Below, in pieces: positions 9,506 through 63,178 of a stretch of 64,000 bases of DNA (positions within the stretch are counted from its first letter, which is position 1; each line of letters opens with the position of its first letter). The notes beneath the pieces were generated by a model, which saw only the letters and a list, made by a program, of their open reading frames with translations, made no database searches and was not told the origin of the DNA. This DNA is from Alphaproteobacteria bacterium (GTDB taxonomy: Bacteria > Pseudomonadota > Alphaproteobacteria > SP197), in the NCBI GenBank assembly GCA_964291265.2, contig OZ219746.1, forward strand, positions 288,001 through 352,000. Reading direction: 5' to 3'. The position numbers and the translations under genes were made by a program.

Positions 9506-9901
9506 TCAGTGATTCGGTAGCACCTCGATATCACCGCACCGCAACAGCCGCCTGTCCGCCGTCACAAGCGACAGGCCGTGCACCTTGGCAGTGGCGACGA
9601 TGAAGCGATCTGCAGGATCCTGGTGTTCGAGGTCGACAGTGCGGCTGGTGAACGCCACATCAATGGTCAGCGGAGCCTCTGCGATGGGGGTGATTGACAT
9701 CGCCTTGCGAAGCCAACGGCGGGGATCGGGGGCGAGCACCACCCGGCCGCGCTCGGCAAGAAGCAGAGTTTCCCACACGCTGATGGGGGAGAGATGGAGC
9801 TCGACCTCGCCGGACCGCAAGGCTTTTCTTGCTGATTTGCCGAGTCGGTCCGGGTCGAGGAGGCTCCAGAGCCAGATGTGCGTATCGAGCAGCAGCCCCA
9901 T
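9506..9901 (-). CDS. vapC: Type II TA toxin, VapC/PIN family
   Basis: LLLDTHIWLW, SPISVWE, HQDPADRFIVATA, LVTAD. Confidence 0.92.
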   Translation of the reverse strand: MGLLLDTHIWLWSLLDPDRLGKSARKALRSGEVELHLSPISVWETLLLAERGRVVLAPDPRRWLRKAMSITPIAEAPLTIDVAFTSRTVDLEHQDPADRFIVATAKVHGLSLVTADRRLLRCGDIEVLPNH

Positions 9902-10135
9902 CTACTTCAGAGCTTCCCATTCCGACAGGTCCACCACAGGTGCGACGAGGTCATCACGGATCTTGCCATCGTTCTGCATCGCGCCCAGCCATTCCCCGGT
10001 CGGACACGGCGGCGGCAGAATCTGGGCAACCGGCTTGCCGAAGCGGGTCACAAGAACAGGCTTGCGCGTCGTTCCCACCCGGTCGAGAACGGCCAGACAC
10101 GTCGCCTTGAACTTCGAAATCTGGATCTCTTCCAT
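9902..10135 (-). CDS. Type II TA antitoxin, Phd/YefM family
   Basis: ISKFKATCLAVLDRV..PVLVTRFGKPVAQILP; abuts vapC. Confidence 0.9.
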   Translation of the reverse strand: MEEIQISKFKATCLAVLDRVGTTRKPVLVTRFGKPVAQILPPPCPTGEWLGAMQNDGKIRDDLVAPVVDLSEWEALK

Positions 10136-10171
10136 GAGGCTGTATGTACCATGGTCCGAGTCCATGGTCAA
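10136..10171 (-). promoter_or_regulatory. Promoter/operator of phd-vapC (probably leaderless)
   Basis: Minus strand TTGACC-N17-TACATA-N7-ATG; two GACCATGG repeats with palindromic CCATGG core over the -35 and spacer. Confidence 0.6.
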
Positions 10172-10504
10172 CATTGAGTTTTCTGACGCGAGCCGCTGAA
10201 AGTCGTCGAACAATCTGCTCGCGGCACCTCCCGCGAACGGGGGGATTCATGGCGCATGTCGAGACGCCACCGCAAGATGAGCCAATGGCTGGCGGCCGCC
10301 TTTCTCAATGCCCGCCGGAATGTTCCGCTTGCCGGGACATCGGCCGACAGAACTGACGCCATGGCAGCGGAGTTGACGAGGTCTCCCTTGTGCTCCGGTG
10401 TGGCCCACAGCATCCATGTTGGTGGAGCCGGTCGCCCTCAATGCCGATGACCTGCGCCTGTTCATGGCTGCGCCCCTGGCGCAGCGATCAGCGTCGTGGT
10501 CCAT

Positions 10505-34285: not shown

Positions 34286-34652
34286 CCCCTCCCGGTGATC
34301 AGTTCCGCATCGCAGTTCGGCCAGACATGCCAATGGGTGTCCGAGGGATGAGCCGCCCTCGGTGAAGGCGACACCGGCATGGGCCGCCATGCCAAGAGCG
34401 CCCGAACCGCCACCACCGATGTCGACAAGACCCTCGGAGACCCTCGGTCGCCTCCAGGCCATTGTCATTCAAGAACGTCGTGTCCTGGACGACAAAAGAA
34501 AAGCCCTGCATACGAACGCGCGACGTCAAGAGACTCGAACGGAGTTCAGCGTGGGATCACCCTGAACAAGAGCCGAGTTCCGTTGACGGTCACGGGATCC
34601 ATCCTCATACTCGCGCAAACAGGAGTTTTCCGGGGTGCGGTTCAAGATCGCC

Positions 34653-35111
34653 ATGCAAGAGCGTTTCGTGGACGACGTAGCGGCCCGAGATAAGTATTCG
34701 TCGTTCCATCGTCATCTCCTTTCCATGCGTCCGGAACCGGAATGGCGGACAACCTTCGGCGCGCTTGAAGCGGTTCTCGGCAGCCGACTGCCTGTTTCGA
34801 CACAACCGCGCCGGCCCTTGTGGTCCAACCCGAGGATGGACAATGATCATTCGCTGGCGCAGCAGGCGGCGAGATGGCGTTTGCAGAACGGGGGCATCAA
34901 AACGAGGACGACTGTGCTCGCGTTCCAGGAGATGCCGCCGGAACCGAACACGGTGCCCGTGCGACAGCAGGGATTCTCTATCCGGGAGATTCTGCCTCCC
35001 TATGATCCCGGACCCTGGCCCGACGGCTTCACGATGAGCCGTGAGCAAATCTACGACGACATGGGGCGCTTGACCGGAGGACACGAGGACATGCCCGGTG
35101 ACAACCACTGA
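34653..35111 (+). CDS. Putative antitoxin/DNA-binding protein (DUF7662-like N-terminus)
   Basis: KY..F..HL..WRTTF.ALEAVLG..LP.S....WSN pattern; C-terminal PGPWPDGFTMSREQIYDD typical of PIN antitoxins; 5 nt upstream of the PIN gene. Confidence 0.6.
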   Translation: MQERFVDDVAARDKYSSFHRHLLSMRPEPEWRTTFGALEAVLGSRLPVSTQPRRPLWSNPRMDNDHSLAQQAARWRLQNGGIKTRTTVLAFQEMPPEPNTVPVRQQGFSIREILPPYDPGPWPDGFTMSREQIYDDMGRLTGGHEDMPGDNH

Positions 35112-35116
35112 CCGGC

Positions 35117-35551
35117 ATGTTCGTTGACACCAATGTTCTCGTTGCGGCCCGTTTCGTGAACGCGCCTTGTCATGTGATTGCCTGCCGGTGCCTCGACCAC
35201 GCCGGCAATAGCGAAGAACCCCTGCTCATCAGCCGCCAGATTGTCCGCGAGTATCTCGTTGTGGTTACGCGCCAGCAAAGCTGGGCCAAACCGCTCGCCA
35301 TAACCGACGCTTTGGATGACGTGACGAGGCTGGTATCCCCGTTCATCCTCCTGGAAGATGGTCCGAACGTCATGGAGATGCTGGCCGTGCTTTGCCGCGA
35401 GGTTCCCGTCGGGGGCAAGCAGGTCCATGACGCGAACATCGCGGCAACCATGCTGGCGTATGGTGAGCGACGACTCCTGACACTCAACATCAAGGACTTC
35501 CGGCGTTACGGAAATCGAATCGAGCTGGTGGATCTGAAGGTGGCAGGGTGA
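35117..35551 (+). CDS. PIN-domain (VapC-like) ribonuclease
   Basis: FVDTNVL, QIVREY, GKQVHDANIAATM, LTLNIKDF. Confidence 0.9.
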   Translation: MFVDTNVLVAARFVNAPCHVIACRCLDHAGNSEEPLLISRQIVREYLVVVTRQQSWAKPLAITDALDDVTRLVSPFILLEDGPNVMEMLAVLCREVPVGGKQVHDANIAATMLAYGERRLLTLNIKDFRRYGNRIELVDLKVAG

Positions 35552-35844
35552 GTGGGCGACCTAGTGAACCCGAACGAGTGCTCTGGCCAAGAATTAGGTC
35601 TGGAGCCGTTGCGCGTTGGAATCACCCACTGCCTCTGCGGGCATATGCATGACGGCCACGGATCCCAACCGACACAACGCCAGTCATGCGTGTGTTTCAT
35701 CATCGATGGTTGATGATGCAGTGGTGGCTGGGTCGCTCGAACCGTCCTTTCGGACGGTCGATGAATATTGTTCCCAAACGCTTGACACCAACCCTCGGAC
35801 CACCGACAGCTGAGAACGAGTGTCCGCCCGGAGAAAACGCCACA

Positions 35845-38800
35845 ATGACTGAACCTTCCCTGTCAGCTCTGGCCTCCGTTCTGCGACCGTTCACCACGAT
35901 CGTTTTCCAGCATGTACGCCGTTTGTCCGCGGAGCGTCAGGCTGGTCAAGAGCCGTTAATCCGAACATCCACAGTCATGGATGGCTTGCTAAACAATACG
36001 CTGGACAGAATTCGCAACGGACGCATTGACTCAAGCTGGTGGCAAAGCTTGCTGCATCGAGTCGGTCACCAGTACATTGCCCCCGATTTTCTGAAAAAGC
36101 CCGTGTTACGGGGATGGCTTGCGGAGGAGTCCGTCGCTAAGGACCTTAAGATGATTGCGACGTGGCGTATAATGGACAGTGCTCAAGATGAGGCCGTCCC
36201 TCGCGATCGCCTCGCCCAAAGCTACTCGCACCGAACCGGAGAAGTCCCCTACCTGGCTGCCAGACCTATCGATGTGGTGGTAGCCGTCCTGGTTGCGGGC
36301 TACTTTGGAGCGAGTCGATCCGATGATCGAGCGATTACGGGCATCATGCAAACCGGATTTTTGCAGATCAGTGAACGCCTAGATCAGCTAGGCCAAGCCT
36401 TACCGCTGACCACCGATCCAGTCACCTGCAAAGCGCATACGCAAGATGCAGAGAAGCGGCTCGCACAAATCCTCTCTCTTCGCGGCATCAATCCTGCAAG
36501 AGCGCGACACGACACTCAAGAACTGCTAAAGCGACTTGACTCTGGTGACCTGTCCGCCGCCGCAGCAAAGATCAAGCATGACGTTCGTTACTGGACGGCA
36601 AGGTTGAGTGCGAGTGATGTCAAAACACTCGAGATTGCCAAAGAGCTCAGGGTGCAGATCAACAACGATGACCCGGACAGGGATCTGTCCATCATCGATG
36701 CACTGATATGCGAGACGCAGGACAACCCCGATGAAGCCGTCCGACTTCTTCGCGACCGTGACGACCCTGATTCTCGAGCCGTTTTTTTCGGCCTGCTTGC
36801 CCGATCACGTGACGCCGGCGCCGCACTGGCCGAATTTGCGGAAAGAATGGTTACCGCACATGCCGAGTTCTTTACCTCTATTGGATGGAGGAACTGGGCC
36901 CATTGCATGATCAAGGTGGGTCGATGGATGGAAGCAGCGGAGGTTCTCGTTCGGATCGGCGACAAGAAGTCCGATTCCCCGATGTTGGCTCTTATTGAAG
37001 GAATCATCAACGCGCAGTTGCTGCTTCCCACGGAGTTGCGAAACGCTACTGGAGACCTTCCGATATCTGCCGGCATCAGACCAATGCAGGGAGAGGATGC
37101 AGAGAACATTCATGCGCGAGCAGCGGCCTGCCTTGAAATGGCTCAGGCTGGATTTGGGGAGCTTGAAGCCAGCGCTCTCGAGCGATATGTGGCTTTCTGG
37201 CGTCAATGGCTCCGGTTGATGGATCCGAAGGATGAGAACGCAAGAGTTGCTCGGGAGCAAGTTCGACAAGATCTCGACCGTGACGAACCGGACATCAGGG
37301 CGGTACCGCTCGCATGGGCATTTGAAATTTCATTCAATCGGGAGCCGATACGACGCTACCTGTCTGGTCGAGAGAAACTCGGTGGGTTGGACGACGATGA
37401 GCTTCGGGCTCAGTGCCTTCTGTTGTTGATTGACATGGACTCCGGAGCCTTGAGTGGCCGGAACTTCCTGCGTTATCTGAATGCACATCGGAAGAGGCTT
37501 GATCGCGTGATGTCGAACGGCCTCCTCAAGTCCGCGAATATCAGGGCTCTGGTAGTGGACAATCAGACGGCGAGAGCTCGCAAGCGTTTGGAGGAGATGC
37601 GCGGTGACCTTGACGACGAGGGAGTAAGGCGTCTTTCTGCGATGATCGATTCTCACGCGGGTCTCGACCCTCGACAGAAGCTTGAAAGGGCATACCAAGA
37701 GACTGGAAGCATCACAGATCTTCGCAATCTTGTTGAGTGTGTGAGGAATGCGGATGACAACGAGGCTCTCCTACCTCTTCTCCGGGAGTTGGTGGGGCGA
37801 CACCGGACCGTCGCGAATGTGACGGACTTGGCGGTTTGCCTGAGCGGTCGACCTTTCTCGGATCACCGTCAGATAGTCGAACTTCTCGATTCCAACGAGG
37901 CCTACGCGGATCTTGTCGAACAAAGCGTCGACCTCAAGGTTGTAAAGGCGTGGGCGCTCTTTCACTCCGGTCAGTTGTCGAAAGCCAAGGTACATAGCGA
38001 CGAGATCTTGAACAATCGGTCTTCAGTGAACATGAACTTGTCTGAAGCGAGCGTGATTGGCCTCGACATCAACATCGCATTGGCATCCGGTGACTGGGAG
38101 CGTCTCCCGGCAATCGTCGAGCGTGAATGGCCAAGGCGAGATGAGCACACCGCCAATACGCTACTTGGTCTGGCCCAGATTTCACCTCGTCAAGGCAAGA
38201 ACCCAGACCGGGCGCTGATGCTTGCCAGGCTGGCCGCAGAAAAGGCCCCCGATGACCCGCACGTCCTGGCAGCGTCGTATTGGTTGCATTTCCAGCATGG
38301 TCGAGACGGAGACGCTGATCGGGATTGGTTGTCACGCGCCTTGGAGCTCTCGTCGGACGAAGATGGGCCCGTGTGGTCCGTTGATCTGCAAACAGTTGCT
38401 ACCAACTGGATGCCCACGCGTCGGGAACGACTGGCCGAAATCAGGAAGCAATGGCTGGCTGGTGAGATCCCGACTGGATTGGCTGCGTCTCTATGGGACG
38501 TCTCCCTGACACGCCTCCTTGTACAAATTCCCGAGACCAACGCAGATGAGCCCGATCGACGCCTGACGGAAGTCGTGCCGGTGGGTCTTGGCAAGCGGGC
38601 GGCCGTGGAACTGCAAACGGACTGGGCTATTGGGCTGGATATCACCTCCATTCTCGTCTTGCACTACCTCGGTTTTTTGGAGTTTGTTTTCTGTGTGTTC
38701 AAGCGTGTCAAGCTCGCTTCTGACGTGATGCTGAGCCTGTTCCGGGAGCAGGACAGAGTCCGCTTCCATCAGCCATCGCGCATCAGAGACGGACAGCAGG

Positions 38801-41800
38801 TGCAGAATTTGTGCAACCTGCAGCGACTTCGCGTTGCTGATGGTATTGAGGCCCCACCCACAGACGCTGTCGACGAGCTAGGGAGGGAGTTGGCTGAATT
38901 ATTGCACGCAGCAAGACAAGGCGGCGGCAAGGTGGTTTGCGTCTTTCCAATCCACCAACCCAAGTCGATGATGGAGAAGGAAGCCGACACCACGGCGTGG
39001 AACGACCTCCTCGTTTCAGTGTTCGATCTGTGCAGGTTGCTGCATATGCGGGGCGATATCGATGCCGACACACACGAGCGGGTTCAACTGTTTCTTCGAA
39101 CCCAAGGCCAGGCAGCACGAGGGGATGCGGAAACGTCGATTCTGGACGGAGCGATCTATCTGGACGATCTCGCTCTATCCTACCTTCAGAGTGCCAAGGT
39201 TCTGGACCAGGTTGCTACGTCCAACCTGGATCTCCGCATCCATTCCAGGGTTCTCGATCGCATGGAGGCACTCGTCAGAGCGGGTCAATCGGGTGAAGAC
39301 CTTGCAGTGAAGATAGACGAGATTCGTCATGTCCTACGCAGCGCAGTGGAGTCCGGAAGAGCATCCTATCTGCCTCGCAGTGTGGATCAGGAGGAGTCGG
39401 TTCCGAATCGCGACGATCCGTTCGCCGCCACCCGATCGCTGTTGGCAGCCGCTGCTGAATGTGACGCCCTCTGCGTCGATGACCGCTTCATCAACAGCAG
39501 TGAAAGCATCACAGTCACTGAGAAAGCGGAACGCACCATCCCCATTGTCTGTGTACTTGACGTATTGGACTGCCTTGTCGAGCAAGCTCATCTCCGTCCG
39601 GTGCACCTTTGGACGGCACGGCACAAGCTGCGGTCTGGTGGATTTGTCTTCATTCCTTTGGAGGTGGACGAATTGGTCCATTGGCTGAAGACAGCCCCTG
39701 TGGAGAACGGACTGTGGATCGAGAGCGCTGAGCTTCGTGCCATTCGCCAGTCCATGGCACAGACAAGTTCTGTGGGCTTGTTCAACCCCGATGAGACTTT
39801 TGTATTGTCCGATGAGGTAACCCAAACGAGCGTTTGCGCCCTTCGGTCATTGTGGAGAAATCAGTGCTTGGCCGTGGAGACCGTCGTCACGATGTCGACT
39901 TGGGTCTGGCGACACTTGATTGCCAACGCACCTGGTGGGCACGGAGATGACGAAGAGAAAAGACGCAAGACTTGGACTCGAGAGTCAGTGCTACGGCGGG
40001 TCAGTGCGGTTCTTCTCCCACCAGGCATTGAATCGTCCGATCGCCGAGACAGCTTTGCCCGGTGGGTGGACGAGTCGGTTCTTCAACCTTTCCGGCCAGC
40101 AAATGTAAATCTGATCGACGATGCCCTGACTCTCATAGCTGATAGCATTCCGGATGAAGATTGTGAAGACTCAGTGTTTGTTAATTTTTTTCTTTCTCAC
40201 TTGCCGGATTCTTGCCGACAGTATCTGCTGAAGAAGTATCCTGATCGAGCCCGTCGGTGGGGCTTCGAGACACGAACAGTGTTCGGTCTCGAAGCTGGGA
40301 TCAAGATCCTTGATAAGGAGCTGTTTGCGGCTGCAAGGCATGTTTTGTCGGGGAAGGGGGAACGATCGATACGATCCATCATGGGCGACGATATATTGGT
40401 TGATCTCGATCCGGGAGACTTGACCGTGGTCCTGGTGAACCCCGACACCGGGCCAGGAAACAGGGAGAAAATTCCGGATCTCTCGGTTTTTTCTCCTGAT
40501 TCACAAACACGGGTAGCGGCACTGGGTTCCATGCTTGATCGTCTTGGGCCGACGGCACCTGATTTCGGACGCCTTCTTGCCGACCTGGAATTGGGCGAGC
40601 CGGACGATTCTGAATTGACGGATGTCTTTCGTGAGGCTGCCGATGGTGTGGCAGCCTTGCAAGGTTCGTTGCTCAGGAAGATCTGTCCTGGTCAACCTCT
40701 CGACGTCGTTGACGTGGTTCCGGAAGACCTCGCTTATTACGAAAAATTCGTGGGGCCGCAGCCCGAATCGAGGGATCCCGATCAGTACATTTCCCGTACT
40801 CTGATCCCCTATCGCAGAGCACTTCTGGATCGAGACCTGAGCCGCGGCCTTGATATCTGCTGTGTTGGGGCCTTGCGCGAAGATCTTTGTCCTGGACAGT
40901 GGACGTTCCACATCGACGACAATGAGATGTGGGATGCTCTCAACGCCTGCGATGCTGACAAGACGCCGGTTTCACTGCTGGGCGCTCTCGACGTGGCGCT
41001 GTATCGGCAGCACGACGATCGATTTCGGGACTATGCTGCACGAGCGATCATCAAGCTCTGCAGCGATGGGTTCGATCCGCAGCAGAGCACCGAATTCTAC
41101 AAGCTTTTTTGGATATTTACATTTCTCACGTTCAATCGCGTAAGCCTCATCGAAAACGGTTCGAAGCAGCCTGGTTTCTGGAGACGGATGTGTGCGTGGA
41201 TGCAGGCTCAGTTCATTGTCCGTGCCTTGTCAAGAGAATCTGTTTCAGTCGACTTGGACAAGCTGGAGGGTTGGGCCATGTCAAACATGGCGCTCGTGGG
41301 GGCTTATGCCGAGCTTGTCAGCGCTCGGGAAGAGCCGATGCTGTTGTTTGCGGAACGCCTGCCGCCCAGCGATTTACGTTGTGAAGTACTTGGTCGCCTT
41401 GTGGGGCTGAGGTCGCGCCACGCGAGCGAGGGAAGAAGCATTCCCCAGTCGGAAACAATCGACCAGGCACTGGAACGGGCACAGGAGAGCGGGAATTGGC
41501 TGAAGTGCTTCTTTCCCGGGCCGCTGGAAGGCCACCGACGTCCTACTGAACCTGCATCGGAGCAGCTTGTGGGGACGTTGAAGGAATCGGTGCCGGATGG
41601 CTCCCTTCCTGCATCGTGGCACTTCATGGCGAACCTTTCGCATCTGCATGCGTTGGGCGAATGCGAACTTGGTGTCGCACGTGAGGCAGTGGTTCGAGTA
41701 GGCGACGGTTCCGACGAAGGGGAAATGAGGAATACCCTCCTCTCCTTGGAAGCCGCGAGTATGGTAGCGAAAACAAGCAGGGACACGTTGCTGGCGGACG

Positions 41801-42096
41801 CGATCGCAGATGCGGTTGCAAGCATCGCCAGGAGGGTTTCGAACGAGAACGACATCTGGCTTATTCTTGTAATCTGCTTGCAGGCTGCAGCTGCCTTCGA
41901 AGAACACGATGCGTGGTTTGATTGGCTGGAAGAAAGACTGGCGAGAATTGCAAGCTCTCTTCCTGGTCCCCCCAACCGATCCGTTCCGATGTTCCTGGAG
42001 CATCTCGACGCGATGGAAACGATCCTGCCCATCGGCTCCTGGTTTCATCGCCGGGCGAGATCCATAGCATCGATGGGTACTGTGCGCCGGCCGTAG
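35845..42096 (+). CDS. Very large helical-repeat protein with tandem PIN-like motifs (candidate conflict/defence protein)
   Basis: Uninterrupted ~2080-2136 aa ORF; TPR-like helices in the N-terminal half; IGLDITSILVLHYLG, IYLDDLALSYL and ALCVDDRFIN PIN-like acidic motifs; no Walker A seen; start uncertain (35686 or 35845). Confidence 0.7.
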   Translation: MTEPSLSALASVLRPFTTIVFQHVRRLSAERQAGQEPLIRTSTVMDGLLNNTLDRIRNGRIDSSWWQSLLHRVGHQYIAPDFLKKPVLRGWLAEESVAKDLKMIATWRIMDSAQDEAVPRDRLAQSYSHRTGEVPYLAARPIDVVVAVLVAGYFGASRSDDRAITGIMQTGFLQISERLDQLGQALPLTTDPVTCKAHTQDAEKRLAQILSLRGINPARARHDTQELLKRLDSGDLSAAAAKIKHDVRYWTARLSASDVKTLEIAKELRVQINNDDPDRDLSIIDALICETQDNPDEAVRLLRDRDDPDSRAVFFGLLARSRDAGAALAEFAERMVTAHAEFFTSIGWRNWAHCMIKVGRWMEAAEVLVRIGDKKSDSPMLALIEGIINAQLLLPTELRNATGDLPISAGIRPMQGEDAENIHARAAACLEMAQAGFGELEASALERYVAFWRQWLRLMDPKDENARVAREQVRQDLDRDEPDIRAVPLAWAFEISFNREPIRRYLSGREKLGGLDDDELRAQCLLLLIDMDSGALSGRNFLRYLNAHRKRLDRVMSNGLLKSANIRALVVDNQTARARKRLEEMRGDLDDEGVRRLSAMIDSHAGLDPRQKLERAYQETGSITDLRNLVECVRNADDNEALLPLLRELVGRHRTVANVTDLAVCLSGRPFSDHRQIVELLDSNEAYADLVEQSVDLKVVKAWALFHSGQLSKAKVHSDEILNNRSSVNMNLSEASVIGLDINIALASGDWERLPAIVEREWPRRDEHTANTLLGLAQISPRQGKNPDRALMLARLAAEKAPDDPHVLAASYWLHFQHGRDGDADRDWLSRALELSSDEDGPVWSVDLQTVATNWMPTRRERLAEIRKQWLAGEIPTGLAASLWDVSLTRLLVQIPETNADEPDRRLTEVVPVGLGKRAAVELQTDWAIGLDITSILVLHYLGFLEFVFCVFKRVKLASDVMLSLFREQDRVRFHQPSRIRDGQQVQNLCNLQRLRVADGIEAPPTDAVDELGRELAELLHAARQGGGKVVCVFPIHQPKSMMEKEADTTAWNDLLVSVFDLCRLLHMRGDIDADTHERVQLFLRTQGQAARGDAETSILDGAIYLDDLALSYLQSAKVLDQVATSNLDLRIHSRVLDRMEALVRAGQSGEDLAVKIDEIRHVLRSAVESGRASYLPRSVDQEESVPNRDDPFAATRSLLAAAAECDALCVDDRFINSSESITVTEKAERTIPIVCVLDVLDCLVEQAHLRPVHLWTARHKLRSGGFVFIPLEVDELVHWLKTAPVENGLWIESAELRAIRQSMAQTSSVGLFNPDETFVLSDEVTQTSVCALRSLWRNQCLAVETVVTMSTWVWRHLIANAPGGHGDDEEKRRKTWTRESVLRRVSAVLLPPGIESSDRRDSFARWVDESVLQPFRPANVNLIDDALTLIADSIPDEDCEDSVFVNFFLSHLPDSCRQYLLKKYPDRARRWGFETRTVFGLEAGIKILDKELFAAARHVLSGKGERSIRSIMGDDILVDLDPGDLTVVLVNPDTGPGNREKIPDLSVFSPDSQTRVAALGSMLDRLGPTAPDFGRLLADLELGEPDDSELTDVFREAADGVAALQGSLLRKICPGQPLDVVDVVPEDLAYYEKFVGPQPESRDPDQYISRTLIPYRRALLDRDLSRGLDICCVGALREDLCPGQWTFHIDDNEMWDALNACDADKTPVSLLGALDVALYRQHDDRFRDYAARAIIKLCSDGFDPQQSTEFYKLFWIFTFLTFNRVSLIENGSKQPGFWRRMCAWMQAQFIVRALSRESVSVDLDKLEGWAMSNMALVGAYAELVSAREEPMLLFAERLPPSDLRCEVLGRLVGLRSRHASEGRSIPQSETIDQALERAQESGNWLKCFFPGPLEGHRRPTEPASEQLVGTLKESVPDGSLPASWHFMANLSHLHALGECELGVAREAVVRVGDGSDEGEMRNTLLSLEAASMVAKTSRDTLLADAIADAVASIARRVSNENDIWLILVICLQAAAAFEEHDAWFDWLEERLARIASSLPGPPNRSVPMFLEHLDAMETILPIGSWFHRRARSIASMGTVRRP

Positions 42097-42183
42097 ATTG
42101 CCCGGCTCCCGGTGGGCATCAGCGAGAAGTCAATTGACGCCCGGATCATGCAGTGAGCCGATGTGGGGGCACCTTCCCGGAAC

Positions 42184-59349: not shown

Positions 59350-59567
59350 CGACGACCCAGGCCCAGGTGCGGACCGAGGTGGTGTGGTTCAACTTTGCTC
59401 CCGACCGGGTGCACTGGTCGCGCTACGCGGGGCGGAACTTCACCGCCCGCCAGTGCATCAAGCGCAAGGCGGCCAACTGGGGGCGGCGCTACGAGGCCAT
59501 GCCGCCGGGGGAACGTCTGGCCGTGCTGGCGGCGATCATGGCCGTCGAGGCCGGGGAGGGTTCGTGA
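59350..59567 (+). pseudogene. C-terminal remnant of a probable DNA adenine methyltransferase-like gene
   Basis: VRTEVVWFNF.PDRVHW..YAGRNFT.RQ.IKRKAANW..RY..MPPGERLAVL, recalled as the C-terminus of mobile-element DNA adenine methylases; N-terminus absent. Confidence 0.5.
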
Positions 59568-60109
59568 CAGTCTCGCGCTGGCGCGAGGACATCGCCGCCC
59601 AGGACGAGGCCTTCGTGGGCCTTCAGGACCTGTTCAGTCCACACTCCTTCGCCGTGACTGCCGTCAAGGCCCTCCGGGATTGGGGCCAGGGGATGTTGCG
59701 CCTGAGTGAGGCGCTGGTCGGGGAGATCGAGGCGCTGGAGCGGGAGAACACCGGCTTGCGCGAACGGATTGATGCACTCGAGCGCAGCGCCGCGCTCGAC
59801 AGCTCCACCAGCTCCAAGCCACCGGCCAGCGACGGTCTGAAGAAGAACGGAACCCGACAGAAGCGCGCCCGGAGCCAGCGCGGCAAGTCCGACAGGCCCA
59901 GTGGCGGTCAGCGCGGCCACGAGGGAGTCACCCTGAAGCAGGCCGAGAACCCGGACCACGTCGTCGATCATGCTCCGTCTGCCTGTAAGGGCTGCGGCGC
60001 GCCGCTGTCGGATGATGACCGTCACGCAGAACCCGTCTGTCGGCAGGTCTTCGACATGCCCGAGCCGCAGCCCCTCGAGGTCACCGAACATCTGTCGGCG
60101 GCGATTTAG
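59564..60109 (+). pseudogene. Truncated IS66-family (ISBst12-type) transposase
   Basis: Coiled coil, DSSTSSKPPASDG, GGQRGHEG, CKGCG, RQVFDMP..VTEH, then an abrupt stop before the DDE core. Confidence 0.85.
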
Positions 60110-60224
60110 AACGGCGGAATATTGGCGGAGAAGCGCTCTTTTGATCGCTGATCGTGTGAGTGGGTGACCACGGTAGGAGAACGTGCGGCATTGGATGAAG
60201 GTCCGCCCGGTCTTTGTTTTCTGC

Positions 60225-60500
60225 CTATTGTTGGATTCCATTGGTCTTGCGTTGACGTTGTGACGATGTTGTTCCGGTCGGCGTTTTGAGACATTGAAGT
60301 TGATTTTTGTTCTTGATTTCCAGATTGGCTTCAAGCCGATCGCAAAGTGCTATAATTTGGTTAATCTTGGCGACGATGCGGTGTTGTTCTTCGAGGGGTG
60401 GGAGGGGAAATGGCGAGTTTGCGAAATACTCCATCGGCACATGTTTGTGGCCAGCCGTTCCCGTCATTCTGGGGATAACACCTTCAATAAAGAATGAAGG
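60225..60500 (-). pseudogene. hsdS: Type I R-M HsdS C-terminal fragment (out of frame)
   Basis: MTGTAGHKHVP..PFPLPPLEEQHRIVAKINQIIALCDRLE. Confidence 0.8.
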
Positions 60501-61303
60501 CTGGTTTTGACCAGACGGTCCCGGATTTTTTCGCGCTTTTCCCGCGACGCTTGGAGCTGGTCGCAGAGCGCCAACATTTCGTGGGCCTTGGCGACGATAC
60601 GATGCTGCTCAGCAAGGGGCGGGAGAGGAAATGGTGCGACGATGGCGTCTTTGGTGCGTAGCCTCGGCATTTTTGTACCCTGTCCAAGCGTCGTGACATA
60701 TTCCACGAAGTCGGGGCGGCGTAAAGCGAGAGCGCAGTAATCGGAGCAGAAAGGCACATATGGACGGATCGCAACGATTTCGGTTGTGGAGTAACCCAAC
60801 TCATCAGCAAAGAGTGCCTTGTTTAGGTAGGGGCGTAGTTTTCCATACAGGATGTCATCGGGTTGAAATTCGGACTTTGTGCTTTTCGAATCACGCGCTG
60901 GGCTTCTCACCCTCGATGCGAATCGCCCTGTATCTTTTTCGATGTCTTCGAGTTCGAGGAGCCAGAGGGATGGATTGAGATCCTTGGGTTCTCGCTTGAT
61001 GCCTGCGTCATAAAGAAACGCTGTGCCGATGGAGACCCACACCCAGCTTTTCGGAAGAACGAACGGGATTCCTACAATCACGGGATCATTGGCAGTCTTT
61101 TTTCTCGCCCCCGCCTCGACCAGCCGCGCCTTCTCCGCTGCGATATTCTTCAGCAGTTTCGATGCCGGCTCGTCCGTCGGATCCTGCTCCACCAGCTTTC
61201 CCCGAACGGCCAGATCGAGCACGAAACGACGCAGGCGGGGAACGGCTTCGGGTGTGTCGGCCACGCGGTCGAGGAGAGCAAGCAAACGTTCGGCGTGTTT
61301 CAT
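60464..61303 (-). pseudogene. hsdS: Type I R-M specificity subunit, N-terminal half
   Basis: LDLAVRGKLVEQDP, LPKSWVW, ILYGKLRPYLNK, PFPLPPLAEQHRIV; terminates after the first TRD and conserved region. Confidence 0.85.
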
Positions 61304-61656
61304 GTCTTCGACGGTTCCAGCGCGTTCAGCATGGCCTGCACCACGGAACGCAGGGCTGGCAGATCGTTGCGGGCATAGTCCCAGACATCTTCGGGCACGA
61401 TGCTGTCGTAGCCGTGGGCAAGAACGTTCCGGAAACCGATAATCCTGGGCAGGTCCGGGATTTGATCCGCATGTTCGGGGTGGCTCCTGTACAAGCGGTT
61501 CAATGCCTCGCCGCTGATCTCGAACTTGCGCTCGACCGCGGCCCGGGTCCGCCGATCCCGAAGCCAGGCGTCGCGATCCATGTCCTCGATGAAGCGCTCG
61601 ATGTCGGCACCCGTTTGCTCGACATCCCACAACGGGACGCGAGGGTCACTGCGCAT
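61300..61656 (-). CDS. HepT-like HEPN ribonuclease (DUF86)
   Basis: AVERKFEISGEA, RNVLAHGY (Rx4H), VW....LP.L. Confidence 0.9.
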   Translation of the reverse strand: MRSDPRVPLWDVEQTGADIERFIEDMDRDAWLRDRRTRAAVERKFEISGEALNRLYRSHPEHADQIPDLPRIIGFRNVLAHGYDSIVPEDVWDYARNDLPALRSVVQAMLNALEPSKT

Positions 61657-61957
61657 AGACGAGCTCGCGGGACTTGTCGATGGCCGCGCGCAGATAAGGG
61701 TTGCCGATCGCGCGGGTTTCGAGAAGATCGACTGGACAGCCAAGCGTCTCCCGTAACGCCTCGGCGAGATCGAAACGACGGTGGAACGGCCGCAGGTTGC
61801 TGGCGGGATCGAATTCGACCAGGAAGTCGGCGTCGCTGGTGGCGGGATCGAAATCAACGCCCCGCGCTGCCGAGCTGAACACTTCCAGACGTACGACATC
61901 GTAGCGGCGGCACAGTTCCGCCAACTCGTCTTTCTTGTCAGCAATGGCGACATGCAT
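61646..61957 (-). CDS. MntA-like minimal nucleotidyltransferase antitoxin
   Basis: LCRRYDV.RLEVFSSAARG..SDADFLVEF, VDL, NPY; canonical GS reads SS. Confidence 0.85.
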   Translation of the reverse strand: MHVAIADKKDELAELCRRYDVVRLEVFSSAARGVDFDPATSDADFLVEFDPASNLRPFHRRFDLAEALRETLGCPVDLLETRAIGNPYLRAAIDKSRELVYAQ

Positions 61958-62002
61958 GACCAGTTCTCCTGCGCAGGCGGCAAACAAGACCCTTGCCCGT
62001 CG

Positions 62003-62958
62003 TCATCTCAGCAACGCTTCCGACAGGGCGTCCTTCAGCCGGTCGCGCAACGATGCGACTTCCGCCTCGGCGGCGTTCAACTCTGCGAGCAGCGTCTCCG
62101 GGTCGCCGAGGTCGGCACTCTCGGTGTGCGGGTTTCTGAGGTCGAGACTGTAGCCGCGTGCCTTGATGTCCCCGGCGCTCACCTTCCAGGCGTGCCCGCC
62201 TTCGGTGCGGCCCTTGCGTTCCTGTCCGCCCCACCAGCCGGCGCAATCGTCGAGATGCTCCAGCCGGATGGGACGCGTCATCGAATAGGCTTTCTGCCCC
62301 TCGGGCACAAGATGTTCCCAGAACCAGACCTCCCGCGTCGCCTCGCCCTTCTCGAAGAACAGCAGGTTGATCCCGATCGAGGCGTAGGGGCGGAAGACCG
62401 AGTTCGGCAAACTGACGATGGTGTGCAGATTGCATTCCTTCATCAGGCTCTCCTTGAGCCGGGTCTTGACACCTTCGCCGAACAGCGAGCCGTCGGGCAG
62501 GACCACGGCCGCCCGACCGCCGGGTTTCAACAGCCGGATGATGAGGGCCAGAAACAGGTCGCGGTCTCGCGCGTCTGGAAGTGCTTCGGGAAGTTGGACT
62601 CGATGCCGTCCTCTTCCTTGCCGCCTAAGGGCGGATTGGTCAGAACGATGTCCACGCGGTTGTCCCGTCCCCACGAAATCCGGGGACGCGCCAGCGTGTT
62701 GTCGTGGCGCAGGAAGGACGGATCCTCGATGCCGTGCAGCAGCATGTTGGTGGTCGCCAGCATGTGGGGCAGCGGCTTCTTTTCCACGGCGCGCTTCGCC
62801 TGCCCCCGCGTGACCAGTTTGCCCCGAACGATGATCCGGCCTCTGGTAAAGCTAACCTCCTCCCGGATCTGCAACATCTCGTCCCACCCTGCTCGGCGCA
62901 GAGCAGGGGTAATGAATTTGGTGCAGATACCGCGTTCGGATAGGCCGCGCTTATCCAT
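62003..62958 (-). pseudogene. Deleted hsdR-hsdM fusion of a type I R-M system
   Basis: HsdR N-terminus (LSERGICTKFITPAL..GRIIVRGK..KRA) runs directly into mid-HsdM (VEKKPLPHML..NPPLGG), frameshift near 62560, then HsdM C-terminus (LKPGGRAAVVLPDG..LDLRNPH). Confidence 0.9.
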
Positions 62959-62989
62959 GGCGCTCACCCATCTATCAACCCGATGTCGC

Positions 62990-63178
62990 TCATCGGCGTT
63001 CCTCCGGTGAAGGTGGGGTCTCGGACGCATCCAGTGACTTCAGCTGCTGATACTCCTCAACGGAGAGCACGACAACGACAGACCGTCCGTGCTTGGCCAC
63101 GGCGACGGGTTTGGTGCGGGCCAGATCGATCAAACGGCCGAAGCCGTACTTCGCATCCTTGGCGCTCAGGGTCTGCAT
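62990..63178 (-). CDS. Orphan Phd/YefM-family protein upstream of hsdR
   Basis: SAKDAKYGFGRLIDLAR..PV.V.KHGR.VVVVLSVEEY; no cognate toxin downstream. Confidence 0.85.
   Translation of the reverse strand: MQTLSAKDAKYGFGRLIDLARTKPVAVAKHGRSVVVVLSVEEYQQLKSLDASETPPSPEERR

Follow-up and report, generated by a model that had tools for sequence, protein, structure and literature searches.

A horizontally acquired TPR-double-PIN protein of an alphaproteobacterial genome, an apparent cousin of TGP conflict systems and candidate NTPase-free anti-phage receptor

Described relatives and the TPR-double-PIN protein

Conflict proteins of the TGP (TPR-GreA/B-C-PIN) class are the closest described relatives of the gene considered here, which lies on the + strand at 35845..42096 of a 64,000-nucleotide stretch of an Alphaproteobacteria bacterium (assembly GCA_964291265.2, contig OZ219746.1, positions 288,001 to 352,000; hereafter the window) and which, according to its open reading frame (ORF) and the alignment of its homologues, is a whole gene for a 2,083-residue protein, the fused (A+B) form of a TPR-double-PIN family. 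For TGP systems, the accessible sections of the 2021 study describe a variable N-terminal effector logic and propose PIN cleavage as the first line (Kaur, Iyer, Burroughs, Aravind 2021, PMC8195603). This parent class is published and has been validated once, in the Bab/Agp pair of E. coli ECOR25, for which the available text of the preprint reports that Agp is a TGP sensor switching on a small helical killer, that mutations in its GreA/B-C and PIN domains abolish resistance, that Agp alone gave no protection, killing needing the coupled effector Bab, and that an N-terminal 'MEPIS' motif is linked to membrane killing (bioRxiv 10.1101/2024.11.07.622273).

The protein resembles TGP members in its variable N-terminal effector, its TPR region, a related helical segment before the PIN (E 0.002), a PIN of the PF20698 type, a mostly stand-alone gene with few conserved neighbours, and the lack of an NTPase. 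It differs from them in length (~2,080 residues here, 1,100-1,500 there), in having no GreA/B-C before the PIN, in a duplicated PIN with one predicted composite site, in a frequent two-gene form, and in the position of the PIN, which is single and near the C-terminus in TGP proteins, whereas here two repeats are followed by ~830 residues. By sequence comparison it appears to be a rearranged TGP cousin and not a standard member, because no GreA/B-C precedes the PIN and because the PIN repeats number two and not one. The kinship itself had been proposed in an earlier reading of this DNA made by a model from the letters, without database searches (the sequence-only reading), and it holds, with PF24407 above its cut-off, PF20698 near its own, and the pre-PIN segment aligning. 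Module B, the C-terminal part of the protein, occurs in one of 120 TGP hits only, a chimera.

Traces of the family are visible in earlier resources. The accessible part of the 2021 supplement holds one TM+SIR2+TPR+PIN+PIN+TM protein of 2,304 residues, MBI4846278.1, as well as 359 'TPR+PIN' strings without a Gre label (PMC8195603); judged by its architecture string, MBI4846278.1 probably belongs to the TPR-double-PIN family. In addition, the names of Pfam entries PF24407 (HTH_upstream_double_PIN) and PF24388 (Permuted_GreAB-C) both describe parts of this architecture, so the family or a sister of it has already been profiled by someone, and literature searches, in which the source of these two entries was not included, found no paper on the family. 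New here are the natural single-PIN deletions and the catalogue of heads.

Two further comparisons delimit the protein. As far as the accessible text of the preprint goes, the Bab/Agp killer is a separate gene switched on via an amyloid motif, whereas the head of the present protein is part of the same chain and shows no detected homology to Bell. With Avs and STAND NLR-like proteins it shares an effector head and a TPR sensor in one large chain, and it differs from them in having no Walker A and no NTPase-family or PADLOC match. A scan of the protein with the pattern [AG]x4GK[ST] returned nothing, in line with the sequence-only reading; with no NTPase-family match either, a STAND NTPase is ruled out.

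Domain anatomy and the predicted composite PIN site

The + strand frame is open over 35686-42096, and the product starts at 35845 (MTEPS), since full-length homologues align from residue 1 of the 2,083-residue form; an upstream start at 35686 is ruled out because homologues begin at 35845. The ORF is real and its composition foreign: its guanine-plus-cytosine (GC) fraction is 0.561 against a genome mean of 0.647 (standard deviation 0.022), a value as low in only 3 of 771 equal-sized genome windows, and at third codon positions its GC is 0.60, the housekeeping genes checked having 0.72-0.86. The intact, AT-rich ORF of the sequence-only reading is therefore genuine, and the three acidic motifs that it singled out lie where it placed them (IGLDITSILVLHYLG at 38629, IYLDDLALSYL at 39154 and ALCVDDRFIN at 39466). 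PADLOC, which it had named as a check, and NCBIfam both gave no match to the protein, and no paralogue exists in its own genome. A sequencing-run search placed the gene in three contig sets of one study, with no RNA holder among those listed.

The protein opens with an exchangeable head (residues 1-190; 35845..36414), a predicted effector with an M-x-E-P start and a moderately hydrophobic stretch. A TPR-like helical scaffold follows (residues ~191-850; 36415..38394), with Pfam matches to TPR_14 (E 9e-4) and TPR_19 (E 2e-3) that both fall below cut-off in this protein, E values down to 4e-5 in homologues, and weak, positionally consistent matches to the TPR region of TGP proteins; the TPR-like N-terminal half of the sequence-only reading is thus present in weak matches, none of which passes the cut-off. 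Next comes the HTH_upstream_double_PIN segment (PF24407, residues 854-918; 38404..38598), which exceeds its cut-off of 27 with 35.8 bits (E 1e-8) and is the part that aligns with the pre-PIN segment of TGP proteins. PIN repeat 1 (residues ~925-1075; 38617..39069) carries D932 (38638) and E968 in its front half and has a back half without a closing acid (C1032-V-F), while PIN repeat 2 (residues ~1100-1250; 39142..39594) carries D1107 in its front half and D1212/D1213 (39478, 39481) and D1239 (39559) in its back half. The TGP-type PIN model PF20698 matches residues 1105-1218 with E 2e-5 and 25.2 bits, just below the cut-off of 27.8, which is passed in homologues L055 (34.1 bits), L053 (29.2) and L039 (28.8).

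About 830 residues lie beyond the PIN repeats. The first part is a helical domain recognised in the model (residues ~1250-1435; 39595..40149), whose structural matches are generic helical repeats only and in which gene A ends at split loci. The last ~640 residues are module B (residues 1440-2083; 40162..42096), a small beta domain (residues ~1478-1545) followed by an all-helical part, often encoded as its own gene of ~635 residues; what had been set aside as an unassigned tail of ~850 residues therefore contains a module that the sequence-only reading overlooked. The TPR-like region, the HTH, the two PIN repeats, the helical domain and module B together form a body that is constant across relatives.

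Residues 920-1250 are a tandem duplication (repeat alignment over 141 columns, E 0.03), and residues 845-1440 were modelled with a predicted local distance difference test (pLDDT) of 86.9 and a predicted template modelling score (pTM) of 0.83. Of the 50 matches listed by a structure search with a tool other than Foldseek, 29 run from model residue 77-84 to 391-448; these are mostly titled PIN or VapC-type, align over ~100-150 residues, and none of them is confined to one repeat. Among the matches are the PIN domains of EST1A (Z 8.3, root-mean-square deviation 3.7, 132 aligned) and SMG5 (Z 8.2, 2.8, 108 of 111). Because the matches span both repeats with only ~100-150 residues aligned, the model is read as a cross-fold, in which repeat 1 is predicted to contribute its front half and repeat 2 its back half to one unit, with the other two halves nested inside. 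The PIN fold anticipated by the sequence-only reading is recovered in the PF20698 match and in these structural matches, although in the structure check it stands on the search without Foldseek (Z ~8), Foldseek finding nothing at E<=1e-3.

Conservation across 174 non-redundant homologues follows the same division. D932 and D1239 are invariant, D1212 is kept in 172 (two have Glu), D1213 in 170 (four have Glu) and E968 in 166 (eight have Asp), so that these five positions are acidic in 174 of 174, all inside the structurally aligned range, whereas D1107 is kept in 154 of 174, and the Asp pair of repeat 2 corresponds to C1032-V-F in repeat 1. Active PIN nucleases of the VapC, SMG6 and Nob1 type have a cluster of three to four acidic residues at the strand ends. 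In addition, four natural variants of ~1,255 residues (P0154, P0155, P0175, L040), mutually 41-77% identical, have the inner half-pair deleted and keep D, DD and D, the D-to-DD spacing falling from 280 to 102-105 residues. From the model and these deletions, one composite metal-binding site is predicted, formed by D932, E968, D1212/D1213 and D1239, with an inner unit that is likely an inactive scaffold. Conservation, model and natural deletions argue against two active PIN sites. The tandem PIN RNase activity of the sequence-only reading accordingly gives way, as D932 and D1212/D1213 are predicted to sit in one site and the D1107 unit lacks a closing acid and is deleted in four variants; nor are its three acidic motifs equivalents, D1107 belonging to the inner unit and the others to the predicted composite site.

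Several points weigh against this fold and the receptor proposal built around it. The swap was read off aligned ranges and not off coordinates; Z ~8 lies in the range that the structure tool calls common; Foldseek returned nothing at E<=1e-3 for the central model against the PDB; a coevolution test (effective depth 125) gave noise, its top 50 holding 12 pairs within repeat 1 against 6 between the repeat 1 front and repeat 2 back halves; and a deletion between tandem repeats would yield a hybrid PIN under either fold. DS-3 (DefensePredictor, PMC13092281) and the SMG5-SMG6 composite PIN site are precedents for a PIN site put together from separate parts or from one active and one inactive PIN. 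The description of DS-3, as far as accessible, names neither TPR nor module B, and SMG5-SMG6 is, in the accessible description, a two-protein eukaryotic pair.

The ~1,255-residue variants are headless and TPR-less, consisting of one hybrid PIN, module B and a further C-terminal domain of ~120 residues; one of them (L040:9407-13174) adjoins SLOG, ThsB-TIR and CARF-like genes. Together with the split form, they constitute natural dissection tools.

Exchangeable heads, module B and the proposed receptor

Among 176 members longer than 1,400 residues with an intact core beginning by residue 260, the same head of ~190 residues is found in 157 and another head in 12. The replacements are SIR2 (P0105), SMEK (L020), a nuclease-like head with a weak LmuA match (L039) and a similar one in P0210, and a hydrophobic helix that leads into a short beta-rich stretch (L003, P0095, P0098, P0101, P0130, P0137, P0176). 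The first ~190 residues thus present themselves, in these alignments, as a swappable slot, and because this slot is swapped among relatives for SIR2, SMEK and nuclease-like domains, the head is likelier to be the killer than the PIN. The common head had no match in Pfam or in a PDB sequence search and no usable one in the ESM Atlas; the resemblance of its start to the 'MEPIS' motif is a lead and not a result.

Short beta-rich Asn/Gly/Ile/Val stretches occur in alternative heads (L003:9686-10000, P0095, P0098, P0101, P0105, P0130, P0137, P0176), one type being common to the SIR2-headed form, and they are reminiscent of amyloid signalling motifs such as the one in Agp. At L003 no partner carrying the motif was found; at L009:9693-9950 the motif lies just upstream of a B-only gene.

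On balance, the evidence leans slightly towards an NTPase-free anti-phage receptor, in which a constant body would sense infection and a swappable head would kill the infected cell. Around the observed anatomy, conservation, swaps, splits and patchy spread, this reading is built on the head swaps and the analogy with Bab/Agp, because heads are swappable and Agp is inactive without its helical killer; sensing, oligomerisation and membrane killing are carried over by analogy with Agp and TGP. The body would recognise a phage protein or a phage-altered transcription complex, bind or cut RNA at the composite site, and change shape or oligomerise, whereupon the head, with its M-x-[DE]-P-helix start, would be activated and might target the membrane as part of abortive infection. 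As a trigger, RNA polymerase comes into consideration only via a weak permuted GreA/B-C signal in module B.

Other results pull away from this proposal. An M-x(0-2)-[DE]-P start is present in only 57 of 119 heads, and comparison of the common head with Bell, HeLo and NACHT-N models gave a best E of 0.2, in single members only. A profile of 92 TGP GreA/B-C domains matched, among 926 sequences, three chimeras only; PF01272 has no match at this locus at E<=10; and a permuted-GreA profile run on module B gave no signal above reversed sequences, its positive control reaching only 3.4 bits.

The best-surviving alternative, which we nevertheless hold to be unlikely, makes the composite PIN RNase the weapon: the scaffold would sense infection and release the PIN, tRNA, mRNA or nascent phage transcripts would be cut, and the head would be structural or a back-up. 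The five acids conserved in 174 of 174 homologues speak for it, as do the short variants, which have lost the head and TPR region and keep a single intact PIN and module B. Relatives, however, fill the head slot with known killing domains, as at an effector position, and an acid on the helix before the last core strand, part of what we take to be the VapC pattern, is not evident in either repeat. The accessible literature points both ways: PIN cleavage is the first line proposed for TGP systems (PMC8195603), and resistance was lost with Agp D762N, a mutation that also made the protein less stable, whereas Agp alone is inactive without Bab (bioRxiv 10.1101/2024.11.07.622273). A PIN RNase as weapon, the preference of the sequence-only reading, is thus the weaker interpretation, because in the TGP case Agp alone gave no protection and killing needed a coupled effector.

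The profile of module B alone recovers 1,274 clusters (50% identity) at E<=1e-3, while PADLOC and NCBIfam are blind to the protein. The best 150 clusters comprise 56 stand-alone proteins (580-720 residues), 65 fused ones and 29 fragments or others. The gene is split at residue ~1435-1445 in 8 of 56 loci, two of which carry further breaks, with A and B overlapping by a few codons at the stop of the one and the start of the other. A FastTree phylogeny of 125 B sequences places the window protein in a clade of 70 rows (support 99) that are nearly all fused; outside it split forms dominate, and 14 fused/split changes are needed on this unrooted tree, from which their order is not derivable.

The B model (pLDDT 89.3, pTM 0.89) shows the small beta domain and then helices. 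Foldseek found nothing at E<=1e-3 against the PDB and viral structures, and the structural matches obtained otherwise are generic helical repeats only, over the last ~180 residues, with other parts barely covered. The beta domain had no usable match in the ESM Atlas, and PDB sequence searches returned designed repeats only. Conserved positions in B are mostly Arg, Trp and Tyr. Of 49 aligned members, 10 match PF24388 at E<=0.5 (best 1.3e-6); among 42 stand-alone B proteins 6 do so at E<=0.05, each of them below the cut-off, and the window protein has no match. Profile-profile comparison of TGP segments with the TPR-double-PIN family was insensitive, the PIN-to-PIN and TGP-Gre-to-GreA controls having failed, and a complex prediction for the B beta domain with the beta-prime region of host RNA polymerase scored 0.00, with the fold of the partner uncertain.

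A more specific form of the receptor proposal, possible but decidedly tentative, would define a two-part (A+B, often fused) NTPase-free receptor class, in which a domain-swapped PIN pseudo-dimer provides a single composite RNase site as the switch, module B senses phage or RNA polymerase and restrains the PIN, and a helical head kills at the membrane, the headless single-PIN variants being a minimal PIN+B system. The family offers a way to ask what TGP-like receptors sense without an RNA-polymerase-binding domain, and whether the PIN cuts or only signals.

The two-gene form also invites an explanation as a selfish module resembling toxin-antitoxin (TA) systems, in which A would be toxic through its PIN or head, B would restrain it, and the insert would be stabilised with no phage sensing. 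The few-codon overlap between separate A and B genes, whose junction is the same in 8 loci, the mostly structural Arg/Trp/Tyr conservation of B, and the TA genes that neighbour 14 of 46 loci agree with such a module. Fusion in a large clade and repeatedly elsewhere (14 tree changes) would, however, remove the differential decay needed for addiction, 6 kb is costly for the role, and interchangeable heads are left unexplained, which makes it improbable.

Horizontal spread, genomic setting and the rest of the window

At E<=1e-3, a protein search recovered 176 homologues of comparable length, of which the 120 listed, self excluded, are 38-72% identical. A species-genome scan gave 56 loci, spread over Gammaproteobacteria, Alphaproteobacteria, Acidobacteriota, Binatia, Spirochaetia, Desulfobacterota, Nitrospirota and one archaeal bin. 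None of 60 relatives searched, of which 22 belong to the same genus, was found to carry the gene. The family is horizontally moving and the gene horizontally acquired; the gain suspected in the sequence-only reading is borne out by the foreign composition, the absence from 60 relatives and the variable site. By their record titles, many named homologues come from lineages that we take to be sponge-associated. Two loci whose records are titled acidobacterium and gammaproteobacterium (L044 and L052) share a near-identical module B, with a 1,093-residue HEPN-DUF499 neighbour in both, a likeness that reflects either recent transfer or a binning error.

Neighbours were scanned at 46 loci with at least 10 kb of flank, with labels taken from cluster representatives and not from all 653 called genes. 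A defence-type gene is present at 30 of the 46 (28 when two lax labels are left out). In a controlled test with one yardstick, a defence set was matched at 14 of 36 loci and in 27 of 240 windows of this genome, so the defence-type setting that the sequence-only reading expected of homologues is found. The Fisher p of 1e-4 is overstated, since the loci are not independent of one another and a single genome served as control. At 7 of the 46 loci the scanned genes include no defence, TA or mobile neighbour; both points temper the support that the setting lends to the receptor proposal. A role outside defence, for instance as a scaffold for RNA processing or host interaction in symbionts with many TPR proteins, would suit the presumed sponge association and the housekeeping genes immediately flanking this locus, but is very improbable given the patchy cross-phylum spread, SIR2 and nuclease heads, variable site and defence neighbours, and the fact that neither a signal peptide nor a repeated housekeeping partner was seen among the neighbour clusters.

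The largest neighbour clusters, at 17 and 14 of 56 loci and neither at this locus, form a pair of genes of 150 and 200 residues just downstream and mostly convergent (for example at L008:16249-17285 and L012:16244-17304), with no Pfam or PADLOC match. The pair also occurs elsewhere in this genome (G000:C2:184670-185538), and its 150-residue member looks by eye like what we take to be an ADP-ribosyltransferase.

In this genome the gene and an upstream vapC-like pair occupy a low-GC insert of 7.9 kb (34290..42177), which has an FtsJ/S4 (tlyA-like) gene on one side and an M24 peptidase gene on the other. Close relatives share the flanks at 86-90% identity but not the interior, of which only the vapC stretch, in one case (G017), and a dispersed repeat find a match. 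In the nine relatives of the genus that have the two flanks on a single contig, the same gap measures 0.9-20 kb, and its cargo includes restriction-modification (R-M), IrrE, helicase-nuclease or transposase genes in four of the nine and metabolic or unassigned genes in five. Around the insert, neither terminal repeats nor a target duplication could be found.

Upstream and co-oriented (+) lies a VapC-like PIN gene of 144 residues (35117..35551; PF01850, with TIGR00028 below cut-off), whose homologues also stand upstream at three close homologue loci (L001, L002, L024). A 158-residue ORF (34635..35111, +) stops 5 nucleotides before it, with a sigma-70-like site at 34583-34611; it has no Pfam or PADLOC match and, from its position only, is likely the vapC antitoxin. 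At the left insert edge, a dispersed repeat of ~145 bp (34341-34495) has copies in relatives and 14 further BLAST hits in the genome, six of them at an identical 84.5%, and is possibly a miniature mobile element. The same site in one relative (L074; G011:C1:4069100-4083270) holds a C5 methylase-Vsr-EcoRII-like cluster, a DUF6339 gene with an unassigned 652-residue neighbour, and a ThiF and multi-ubiquitin pair with HTH-IrrE.

Elsewhere in the window, the decay that the sequence-only reading ascribed to the other defence and mobile genes applies to part of them. A type I R-M remnant has hsdS in two pieces (60228-61630) and an hsdM that is 5'-truncated and frameshifted near 62555, and a broken IS66 fragment at 59384 adjoins it (locus 59384-63030). 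The PIN, Phd and MNT-HEPN genes, by contrast, are near model-length: the MNT-HEPN pair (61303-61987), between hsdS and hsdM, matches its Pfam models over most of their length, as do the VapC-like PIN gene at 35117-35551 and the PIN gene at 9509-9901 (-), and the Phd gene at 9905-10213 (-) matches positions 1-42 of 74 of its model. The last two genes (9509-10213, -) make up a second Phd-PIN toxin-antitoxin pair, set among housekeeping genes.

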